64,000 bases of DNA from an uncultured Actinomycetota bacterium (GTDB lineage Bacteria > Actinomycetota > Actinomycetes > Mycobacteriales > Pseudonocardiaceae): positions 782,338 to 846,337 of the forward strand of contig CAWAZG010000006.1 in the NCBI GenBank assembly GCA_963786585.1, in the 5' to 3' direction. This document shows, piece by piece, positions 33,606 through 36,539 of the stretch; the first letter of the stretch is position 1, and the number at the start of each line of letters is the position of its first letter. A model generated the notes under the pieces. That model was not told the DNA's origin, searched no databases, and was given only the letters and a program-made list of their open reading frames with translations. The translations under genes were made by a program, and so were the position numbers.

Positions 33606-34019
33606 TCAGCCGCTCTTGTCGGGGCCCGCGCGGTCGAGGTGCACCCGCAGGAGGACCCGGCGCTCGCGGTGCATGGCCTCGTCGAAGTCCGCCCAGTCGG
33701 GGTGCTCGCCGCCCTGCACCTGCCGGTAGAGGGCGCGCAGGCCGTCCAGCGCCGCGGGCAGCTCGACGATCTCGACGTCGCCCTCCACCTGGACCCACCG
33801 GCCGAAGAAGCCGTCGGGCAGGACGCAGAGCCACGCCCGCCCCTCCCGGCGCAGGTTCTTCGTCTTCAGGGCGGTCTCGCGCGTGCTGATCGTCGCCGCG
33901 CCGTCGTCGTCGATGCCGACGACCACGGGCGAGAGCTGGGGCGCGCCGTCGGTGCGGCGGGTCGCGAGGACGGCACGGTGCTGCTCGCGCAGCACCTGCC
34001 GGGCGTCGTCGAGGTCCAT
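33606..34019 (-). CDS. PPOX-class F420-dependent oxidoreductase-like protein
   Basis: VLATRRTDGAPQLSPV, KTKNLRR, WVQVEG. Confidence 0.85.
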   Translation of the reverse strand: MDLDDARQVLREQHRAVLATRRTDGAPQLSPVVVGIDDDGAATISTRETALKTKNLRREGRAWLCVLPDGFFGRWVQVEGDVEIVELPAALDGLRALYRQVQGGEHPDWADFDEAMHRERRVLLRVHLDRAGPDKSG

Positions 34020-34041
34020 GCCCCGGAGGCTAGGGCCGCCC

Positions 34042-35616
34042 TCAGAGCAGGGACAGCTGCTCCGGGGGCGCCTCGACCACCTTCTCCGGGATCACGGGCA
34101 CGGCACCTTCCGGCCACGACCGCTCGGTCTCCCGCCCCTCGTCGCCCTGCCGGCCGCCCATGGCGTGGCCGCCACCGGTGAGACCGTGGCGTGCGAGCAG
34201 CGGCCCGACGCGCGCGGCGAGCTCCTTGCGGTAGGCCGCGTCGACATAGGCCCCGCGGCGGTAGAGGGCGGCGTAGCGCTCGATCAGCGCGGGGTGCTCG
34301 CGGGCGAGCCAGGCGTGGAACCACTCCCGCGTGCCCGGCCGCAGGTGCAGGGCGAGCACGGACGCGCCGCTCGCCCCCGCTGCGGCGATCTCGCCGAGCA
34401 GGGCGTCGAGGGCCTCGTCGGAGTCGGTGAGCCCGGGCAGGACCGGGGCGACGAACACCCCGCACGGCAGCCCGGCGTCGCGGATGCGGCGGACGAGGTC
34501 GAGCCGGGCCCGGGGCGTCGGCGTGCCCGGCTCGACGCGGCGGTGCAGCTCCGGATCGAGCAGGGCCAGCGACACCCCGACCCCCACGGGGACGTCGCGC
34601 GCGGCGGCCGCGAGCTCCGGGAGGTCGCGGGCGAGGAGCGTGCCCTTGGTGAGGATCGAGAACGGCGTGCCGCTGGCCCCCAGGGCCTTGATGATCCCGG
34701 GCATCAGCGCGTACCGGCCCTCCGCGCGCTGGTAGGGGTCGGTGTTGGTGCCCATCGCAACGTGCTCGCGGGCCCAGCGCGGCGCGCGCAGCTCGCGGGC
34801 CAGCACCTCGGGCGCGTTCAGCTTGACCACGACCTGGCGGTCGAAGTCGTCGCCCGCGTCGAGGTCGAGATAGGTGTGGGTGTTGCGGGCGAAGCAGTTG
34901 TGGCTGATCACCCCGTCGGCGACGAAGTCGCCGGTGCCGGTGGTGAGGTCGCCGAGGGCACGCTCGCCGGGCAGCTCGTCCACCTCGACGACGACGCGGC
35001 CGCCGGGCTCGTCGCCGGGCGGCGCCGGGGCCACCGGCGGCGACCCGGGCCGGCGGAACGCCTCGTCGGCCAGGGTCTCGGCGCCGACCAGGGCCTCGCC
35101 GATCCGCAGGTGCGGCCGCTCGTCACCGCCGCAGCCCTCCGGCCGCACGTGGACCCAGCCGCGGCGCGTGAGGAAGCGGTGCTCGGCGCTGGCGACGATC
35201 GCCGTGCCGTCGAGCAGACGGACACACCAGGCCGCCTTCGTCGTGGTCCACGCGGCGTGCACCGGCGTCGGCACCAGCGACCGGACGCCGTTGCTGCGCA
35301 CCTCGGAGCCCACCACGAGATCGCCGACCCGGACGTCGGCCAGCCGCACGCTGGTGCCGTCGACCATGAGGATCCTGGTGTCGAGCGAGAGGCAGTAGGT
35401 GCACGCGTGGCTGCACCCCCGGTAGGGGTTCACGGTCCAGGCGAAGGGCATCGGCGACACCCCGGGCACGCGGTTGAGCACCGAGCGCGCCCGCACCTCG
35501 TGGAAGGTGATCCCCGCGAACTCCGGCGTGCGGACGCTGCGCACGAGGCCCTTGAGCGCCGGCATGCCCGGCAGCTCCTCGGGGCCTCCCGCGACCTTCT
35601 GCTCGTCCCACCGCAC
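34042..35616 (-). CDS. intein-containing Rv2578c-family radical SAM protein
   Basis: WTVNPYRGCSHACTY|intein|CFARNTH, MGTNTDPYQRAEG, ILTKG, TPTPRARL. Confidence 0.93.
   Translation of the reverse strand: MRWDEQKVAGGPEELPGMPALKGLVRSVRTPEFAGITFHEVRARSVLNRVPGVSPMPFAWTVNPYRGCSHACTYCLSLDTRILMVDGTSVRLADVRVGDLVVGSEVRSNGVRSLVPTPVHAAWTTTKAAWCVRLLDGTAIVASAEHRFLTRRGWVHVRPEGCGGDERPHLRIGEALVGAETLADEAFRRPGSPPVAPAPPGDEPGGRVVVEVDELPGERALGDLTTGTGDFVADGVISHNCFARNTHTYLDLDAGDDFDRQVVVKLNAPEVLARELRAPRWAREHVAMGTNTDPYQRAEGRYALMPGIIKALGASGTPFSILTKGTLLARDLPELAAAARDVPVGVGVSLALLDPELHRRVEPGTPTPRARLDLVRRIRDAGLPCGVFVAPVLPGLTDSDEALDALLGEIAAAGASGASVLALHLRPGTREWFHAWLAREHPALIERYAALYRRGAYVDAAYRKELAARVGPLLARHGLTGGGHAMGGRQGDEGRETERSWPEGAVPVIPEKVVEAPPEQLSLL
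34897..35394 (-). mobile_element. 166-aa mini-intein without homing endonuclease
   Basis: Block A CLSLDTRILMVDG, block B ASAEHRFLT, blocks F/G DLTTGTGDFVADGVISHN followed by Cys+1. Confidence 0.92.
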
Positions 35617-35625
35617 GCCCACCAT

Positions 35626-35641
35626 TCGAACACGTGTTCGA
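35626..35641. promoter_or_regulatory. LexA SOS box
   Basis: Perfect palindrome TCGAAC-ACGT-GTTCGA, about 10 bp upstream of the radical SAM start. Confidence 0.9.
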
Positions 35642-35675
35642 GCGGTAGGCAAACCCCCGTCCGGCGTCCACCATC

Positions 35676-36539
35676 GTGCCCGTGGACGACGCCCGCCGCC
35701 TGTGGACCTTGCTCGAACCCCTGCACGCGGTCACGTACTTCGCCCCGGAGGCCCGCGCCGCCGCCGACGCGGTGGGCCTGAAGGGGTTCTGGATGGGCTA
35801 CGTCGCCCAGCGGGCGGCGCCGCTCGGAGCGGTCGGTCCGGAGGTGGCCTGGGCGTCGTTCCACGGCTTCCACGCCGACCGCATCCGCCGCGCGCTGCCC
35901 GACGCCTGGGCGCTCGCCTCCCCCGCGACCTGCCTCGAGGCGCGCCTGACAGGCGTCGACGCGGCGCTGCGACGCCTCCTCGCCGACCTCCCCGGCGGTG
36001 TCGGCTCCGAGGCGGTCGCGGAGGCCGCGCGGCTCGCCGGGGAGGCCGCCGACGCCGCGGACACGGCCGGGCGCGTCCTCGCGGCGGCGAACCAGGCCCT
36101 CCCCCGCCCGGCCCCGCCGCACCTCGCGCTGTGGCAGGCCGCGACGACGCTGCGCGAGCACCGGGGCGACGGCCACGTCGCGGCGCTCGTCGCCCACGAC
36201 GTCGGGCCGGTCGCCGCACACCGGCTCAAGATCGCCGCCGACGAGTCGTCGGACAGCCTCCAGGACTCCCGGCGGATCGACGAGGGAACGTGGGCGGCGG
36301 CCGGCGAGGAGCTGGCCGTGCGCGGCTGGCTCGATGCGAACGGCGCCCTCACCGACGACGGGCGTCGTGCCCGCGACGAGGTCGAACGCGCCACCGACCG
36401 CGCCGCGTCCGGGCCGTGGCGGGCACTCGGCCGGGCGGGCACCGACCGCCTCGCCGGGCTCCTCGGGCCGCTCGTCACCGCCGTCGTCGACGCCGGCGCC
36501 GTCCCGTTTCCCAACCCGATCGGCCTCCCGCGCCCCTGA
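35676..36539 (+). CDS. conserved actinobacterial hypothetical protein (SCO6745-like)
   Basis: EPLHAVTYFA, YVAQRAAPLG, LWQAATTLREHRGDGH. Confidence 0.8.
   Translation: MPVDDARRLWTLLEPLHAVTYFAPEARAAADAVGLKGFWMGYVAQRAAPLGAVGPEVAWASFHGFHADRIRRALPDAWALASPATCLEARLTGVDAALRRLLADLPGGVGSEAVAEAARLAGEAADAADTAGRVLAAANQALPRPAPPHLALWQAATTLREHRGDGHVAALVAHDVGPVAAHRLKIAADESSDSLQDSRRIDEGTWAAAGEELAVRGWLDANGALTDDGRRARDEVERATDRAASGPWRALGRAGTDRLAGLLGPLVTAVVDAGAVPFPNPIGLPRP

Follow-up and report, generated by a model that had tools for sequence, protein, structure and literature searches.

A mini-intein within the iron-sulfur motif of a putatively LexA-controlled radical SAM protein of Actinomycetospora: probably a passenger, doubtfully a redox switch

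Why should an intein sit at the codon of a catalytic cysteine, and stay there throughout a genus? The question is raised by a 64,000-nt stretch of contig CAWAZG010000006.1 (positions 782,338 to 846,337), referred to here as the window, from an uncultured bacterium of the family Pseudonocardiaceae. Its minus strand carries, at positions 34042–35616, a gene of the Rv2578c family of radical S-adenosylmethionine (SAM) proteins, in which an intein interrupts the CxxxCxxC motif that binds the [4Fe-4S] cluster. The initial annotation of this locus proposed two-tier control, with transcription of the gene induced by DNA damage and maturation of its product gated by the redox state of the cytoplasm through a domesticated mini-intein. 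Our comparative analysis leads to a simpler view: we regard it as highly likely that the intein is a splicing-competent, endonuclease-less passenger that descends from the LAGLIDADG intein of Rv2578c/"SplB" genes in Pseudonocardiaceae.

The open reading frame (ORF) spans positions 34042–35652 of the minus strand, with the TGA stop codon at 34042–34044. Translation from the GTG at 35616 (MRWDEQK...) gives a precursor of 524 aa, and translation from the in-frame ATG at 35625 gives one of 527 aa; precursor residues are numbered here from that ATG. The protein passes the cut-offs of two family models, NF038135 ("Rv2578c family radical SAM protein"; 524.3 bits, cut-off 430) and NF038136 ("intein-containing Rv2578c family radical SAM protein"; 758.2 bits, cut-off 700). 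The match to the latter falls in two stretches, the endonuclease part of the model being missing from this protein. The radical SAM core (PF04055) is matched by residues 270–405 in the C-terminal part, and the protein is 98% identical to its counterpart in Actinomycetospora callitridis.

Around the insert the translation reads NPYRGC71SHAC75TY / C78LSLDTRILMVDG...DFVADGVISHN243 / C244FARNTHTY, which confirms the layout seen initially: the cluster motif begins as CSHACTY, is interrupted by an intein of 166 aa (34897–35394, minus strand) that runs from Cys1 to His-Asn, and resumes as CFAR. The splice-site codons are those of Cys1 (35392–35394), Asn166 (34897–34899), and Cys+1 (34894–34896). The N-extein (35395–35616, minus strand) ends with C71-S-H-A-C75-T-Y (35395–35415) and supplies the first two ligands of the [4Fe-4S] cluster; Cys75 is at the same time residue Cys-3 of the intein. 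The C-extein (34045–34896, minus strand) begins at Cys+1 with CFARNTHTY and contains the radical SAM core. When the insert is taken out, a colinear protein of 361 aa with an intact CSHACTYC motif results, and at the same conserved host site 43 intein-free genes of the family read C...C.YCFAR without a gap. The third Fe-S ligand is itself the Cys+1 nucleophile, so that an active enzyme would need splicing; motif and boundaries bear out this part of the initial interpretation.

By its sequence and its predicted structure, the insert is a standard class-1 mini-intein without a homing endonuclease. Besides Cys1, it contains the block B histidine (His72, in SAEH) and block F/G DLTTGTGDFVADGVISHN. 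Cys1, His-Asn, and Cys+1, like the intein boundaries, are invariant in the best 120 database homologues, which have their insert at the same point, and in 30 loci of the genus, and 32 columns are invariant in the inteins of its relatives, including C1, H72, D149, H165, and N166. The AlphaFold2 model is a compact all-beta HINT fold (pLDDT 86, pTM 0.82). Foldseek places the DnaB, RecA, and gp41-1 mini-inteins and a bacterial intein-like domain in the top ranks (TM 0.6–0.74, E ~1e-8), and a PDB search with a profile of mini-inteins from this site recovers DnaB, RecA, and DnaE intein structures with E-values from 7e-7. The Mtu RecA and Ssp/Npu DnaB mini-inteins (PDB 2IN0, 1MI8, 4O1R) share the HINT fold with ours at TM 0.6–0.8 and 22–26% identity, but they come from unrelated hosts and sites and are mostly engineered endonuclease deletions, whereas here the deletion is natural. 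A search of the intein for Pfam LAGLIDADG and HNH domains (PF14528, PF05204, HNH) gave no match, in agreement with the initial statement that this intein cannot home. The place taken by the LAGLIDADG endonuclease in its relatives is occupied by a disordered Pro-rich linker (intein residues 115–130; 35005–35052, minus strand), with pLDDT below 50 at residues 115–120 and 122–130. A genome-wide search with TIGR01445 (E up to 1), which is of limited sensitivity, found no intein other than this one.

The intein class as such has already been catalogued, NF038136 corresponding to the actinobacterial SplB/COG1533 inteins; Novikova et al. (2016) listed 48 of them, all in Actinobacteria (PMC4760082). 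The present intein agrees with them in its host family, in its insertion point just ahead of the third CxxxCxxC cysteine, and in the residues Cys1, His-Asn, and Cys+1; its N- and C-terminal splicing blocks are homologous to theirs. The difference lies in size: the model has 574 positions, and most members bear a LAGLIDADG endonuclease within inteins of 244–516 aa, as opposed to the 166-aa mini-intein found here.

How widespread is the mini form? Of 34 Actinomycetospora genomes surveyed, 31 contain a complete gene, the other three being fragmented or incomplete assemblies, and all 31 complete genes (31/31) carry the mini-intein, with no internal stops. Profile matches in this genus span 1413–1440 nt for 317 profile positions (~950 nt would be expected without an insert), which corresponds to inserts of 155–168 aa. 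In one fragmented assembly, the gene lies on two contigs (G026:C217 and G026:C470) and is divided exactly where the intein inserts, at profile position 77; the break falls within the intein. In the wider family, 215 of 251 Pseudonocardiaceae genomes have the gene, and the tally of insert types covers the 150 matches listed: 84 have full-size inserts (244–367 aa), 23 from three genera have mini-inteins (133–163 aa), and 43 have none. Thus the full, mini, and absent alleles, whose mapping had been suggested initially, all exist, and they are mixed inside several Pseudonocardiaceae genera. The full-size relatives carry two LAGLIDADG motifs (YLxGxxxGDG ... GFLAGxFDAEGS) at the position of the linker and match PF14528, and the insert sizes observed at this site form a decay series of 345, 290, 252, and 143 aa. 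In two genera, g11 (L056, L075–L085) and g21 (L050, L061–L074), every sampled species has a full-size intein whose length does not vary (305 aa in g11, 292 aa in g21); their endonuclease region has a ratio of nonsynonymous to synonymous substitution rates (dN/dS) of ~0.09–0.14, and the endonuclease seems to be maintained there although the intein looks fixed.

In a tree of splicing domains, all Actinomycetospora mini-inteins and 13 metagenomic ones form one clade (support 0.78), whose sister is a 343-aa LAGLIDADG intein. Intein dN and extein dN are correlated (Spearman 0.83). Because the mini-inteins form one clade and diverge in step with their exteins, the endonuclease appears to have been lost once, in the ancestor of the genus, with vertical inheritance since. 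The genus contains two intein subclades that are only 43–48% identical to each other, and we considered an independent origin for them; it was rejected, as all of these inteins fall into one clade and have the linker motif GDxLVGAETL in common.

Both exteins and the intein evolve under purifying selection, to different degrees. Pairwise Nei-Gojobori estimates of dN/dS in Actinomycetospora, which are rough given dS of ~0.4–0.6 and a third-position GC content (GC3) above 90%, are 0.07–0.16 for the exteins (0.10–0.16 for the C-extein alone), and within the two subclades 0.07–0.11 for the exteins, 0.20–0.28 for the whole intein, and 0.22–0.34 for the splicing domain alone. The splicing domain is thus 2–3 times more relaxed than the exteins. 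Elsewhere in the family, the same domain has values of 0.12–0.27 in five endonuclease-bearing genera and 0.23–0.28 in two other mini-intein lineages. Since these values are similar with and without an endonuclease, constraint on the splicing domain was not tightened after the endonuclease was lost, and the description of the mini-intein as domesticated finds no support in its rates of evolution.

These observations are best accommodated by the following scenario. A LAGLIDADG intein commonly sits at the third cluster-Cys codon of Rv2578c/"SplB"-family genes in Pseudonocardiaceae, and its insertion at a catalytic Cys would reflect the tendency, usual among homing endonucleases, to target the best-conserved DNA within a gene. 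The endonuclease would have been lost a single time, in an Actinomycetospora ancestor, the remaining mini-intein being passed on vertically thereafter. The gene would be made as a 524-aa precursor, from which the intein is predicted to excise itself by the class-1 route, Cys1 to Cys+1, joining CSHACTY to CFAR; splicing would restore CxxxCxxC and the radical SAM core. Retention would require no useful function of the intein: it may persist, and have become fixed in the genus, because only a codon-exact deletion removes it without destroying an essential ligand site.

Does the SOS control proposed for the gene have anything to do with the intein? A Cheo-type LexA (SOS) operator, TCGAACACGTGTTCGA, is located at 35626–35641, upstream of the conserved GTG start and separated from it by 9 nt. 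It is the sole perfect LexA match within the window, in which boxes with at most two mismatches number 8 against 2.6 expected; the 6.0-Mb genome has 6 perfect boxes, compared with 0.08 expected from base composition. A one-mismatch box precedes the organism's own recA, and its own lexA has three boxes, also with one mismatch. An SOS box occurs at the same place in all 30 genus loci (30/30) and in 28/29 loci from other genera of the family, with no, mini, or full intein alike. In the box-bearing loci the gap between box and start is 7–12 nt, too short to accommodate a ribosome-binding site; the mRNA probably either lacks a leader or has the operator at its extreme 5' end. The start (A/G)TG-CGN-TGG, encoding M-R-W, is kept in 30 loci of the genus and in 28 of the family, and neither the in-frame ATG at 35625 nor the TTG at 35652 is conserved in relatives. 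Because the box ends 7–12 nt 5' of this conserved start in the relatives' loci, the GTG at 35616 is most likely the start of the radical SAM gene.

In M. tuberculosis, a LexA peak in chromatin immunoprecipitation sequencing (ChIP-seq) was detected at Rv2578c/Rv2579, together with RecA-dependent induction (Smollett et al., 2012; PMC3381160). Rv2578c belongs to the same gene family and has a TCGAAC-N4-GTTCGA operator at its 5' end, as here; binding and induction are known from M. tuberculosis only, and the divergent neighbor there is dhaA, as compared with an HTH_67 protein in our genome. The conserved box and this precedent strongly support the SOS control suggested for the locus, and LexA very probably represses transcription of the radical SAM gene through the conserved predicted operator at its start codon. 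The operator can be ascribed to this gene because the HTH_67 and PNPOx neighbors are retained in only about half of the genus and are missing from the rest of the family.

We also considered the SOS box as a feature linked to the intein and rejected this, as intein-free alleles carry the box too; judged by its distribution, the predicted operator belongs ancestrally to the host gene and is independent of the intein. The Rv2578c gene of M. tuberculosis is not known to contain an intein. The lone boxless locus among the 29, L060 (G066:C1:6775583–6776527), is an intein-free Rv2578c-family paralogue (431 bits), the second copy in one large genome, with no SOS box within ~300 nt of its start. At the other extreme, seven of the 30 genus loci have a second, tandem perfect SOS box, TCGAACTTGCGTTCGA, 1–2 nt upstream of the usual one. 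The loci with this double operator (including L004, L016, L017, L024, L029, and L031) belong to one Actinomycetospora subclade, in which the inteins are 159 aa long and end in HHN.

Several points weigh against the passenger scenario or the splicing competence that it assumes. Autocatalytic splicing is itself predicted from conservation and from purifying selection on both exteins, and the dN/dS values behind the latter are rough, as stated above. Fixation in every species without an intein-free allele would also fit a selected function, so that the "stuck passenger" is a null model and not a proof. A scan of 33950–35760 for sigma-70 promoter and terminator consensus sequences found nothing. 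The position of the block B Thr (TxxH) is taken by Ser or Gly, which we class as a tolerated variant. Finally, the use of intein hidden Markov models as a check gave a divided answer: the generic models stay below their cut-offs (PF14890, 19.5 vs. 35.8; TIGR01445, 15.9 vs. 24.5; TIGR01443, 12 vs. 15.6), and the family model NF038136 passes. The last two points could be taken as signs of a dead or decaying gene, a pseudogene kept by chance whose intein no longer splices. Yet none of the 31 complete copies in the genus has an interrupted frame, no catalytic residue varies, the SOS box has been conserved, and dN/dS amounts to 0.20–0.34 in the intein and, as given above, to less in the exteins. 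Since both exteins are under purifying selection, splicing is expected to work; on these grounds, open frames and selection on both exteins, we reject the dead-gene explanation, which we consider extremely improbable.

The redox-gated switch requires a more careful assessment. According to this hypothesis, a disulfide between Cys75 (Cys-3) and Cys1, or binding of a metal or a [4Fe-4S] cluster by C71, C75, and Cys1, blocks the N-S acyl shift and makes splicing dependent on redox or Fe-S status; maturation of an O2-labile enzyme induced by the SOS response would then be confined to a reducing cytoplasm replete in Fe-S, and this role would be the reason why the mini-intein was retained. The chemistry is plausible. 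The precursor itself contains a complete CxxxCxxC (C71xxxC75xxC1), with Cys+1 next to the C-terminal junction, and the CxxC that spans the N-terminal junction, C75-T-Y-C78, resembles that of Pab MoaA-type redox-trap inteins. The experimental control of the P. abyssi MoaA intein by a native Cys-3/Cys1 disulfide (Callahan et al., 2011) is cited in a review that also describes engineered Cys-3 trapping of the Ssp DnaE intein and Cys1-Cys+1 disulfides in Pab PolII (PMC3922620). Inteins as sensors of oxidative stress have been discussed for mycobacterial SufB (PMC4760082). The presence of the mini-intein in every complete Actinomycetospora gene is likewise what a retained function would produce.

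The resemblance to the P. abyssi MoaA intein, which likewise has a radical SAM host and a Cys three residues before Cys1, is limited by a different host family and by its origin in an archaeal hyperthermophile. In our case the CxxC of Cys-3 and Cys1 arises because the insertion precedes the third Cys of CxxxCxxC, so that the cluster motif of the host would by itself explain Cys-3. Indeed, intein-free, mini, and full alleles do not differ at Cys-3 or at positions -2 and -1, the motif C..(A/G)C.Y being identical in intein-free alleles, and no adaptation of the junction is seen. The two additional cysteines in the intein, WCV and GCG, are present as described initially, but they are not conserved: Cys57 (35224–35226, minus strand) is a substitution private to this genome, the position being Arg in 29/30 Actinomycetospora inteins, and Cys88 (35131–35133, minus strand) is Cys in 23/30 and Ala in 7/30. 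The faster evolution of the intein, 2–3 times that of the exteins relative to dS, and a constraint no tighter than in endonuclease-bearing inteins also argue against a retained function, as does the finding that 43 of the 150 matches listed are intein-free, yet the same SOS box is common in intein-free genes. The literature that could be searched yielded no experimental study of splicing in this intein family.

In summary, the redox switch is chemically plausible but has no comparative support, every comparative test being neutral or negative, and we consider it unlikely. Of the two tiers of control proposed initially, SOS-dependent transcription stands on the conserved box, and redox-dependent maturation does not find comparable backing. 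The statements on which that proposal drew, namely the Pab MoaA Cys-3/Cys1 trap, LexA regulation of Rv2578c, and intein-bearing members of the family, are all correct.

The genomic context of the gene is variable. The divergently transcribed neighbor (35676–36539, plus strand) encodes an HTH_67-family protein (PF21863, 326 bits) and starts 35 nt beyond the LexA box; it may share the operator with the radical SAM gene, and it is retained in only 15/30 loci of the genus and in no other locus of the family. Downstream, 22 nt past the radical SAM stop codon, lies a PNPOx-like gene (PF01243; 33606–34019, minus strand) that is possibly co-transcribed and that is retained in only 16/30 genus loci and in no family locus outside the genus. 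A small candidate SOS regulon is given by the five remaining perfect LexA boxes (C3:673250, C3:2703069, C6:157069, C6:224784, and C6:1410781) of this genome. One of them precedes a DUF222 protein, one a tandem DUF3072 protein, and one a 286-aa protein without a Pfam hit, which may be ImuA'-like. An identical 430-codon ORF containing recA, with the same upstream one-mismatch SOS box, is found on contigs C2 and C6; either the region is duplicated or one of the assembled contigs is redundant.

What is new in this work is the natural mini form of the intein, its fixation in a single genus, where it arose once, its derivation from the LAGLIDADG inteins common in Pseudonocardiaceae, and the conservation of the SOS box whatever the intein state. 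The intein has also gone unflagged: in RefSeq the Actinomycetospora proteins are called simply "Rv2578c family radical SAM protein", and PF04055 is the only Pfam domain precomputed for them. Routine annotation in effect fails to see the mini-inteins at this site.

If it were true, a redox or Fe-S gate would represent native conditional protein splicing layered on SOS control, a second, post-translational checkpoint, and would be relevant to the old debate about whether inteins are ever of use to their hosts. The evidence favors a passenger, and in this respect the locus is valuable mainly as a well-defined and easily testable construct. With full-size, decaying, mini, and empty alleles at one site in one bacterial family, the inteins of the Rv2578c genes of Pseudonocardiaceae are a clear-cut natural illustration of how the homing cycle ends.

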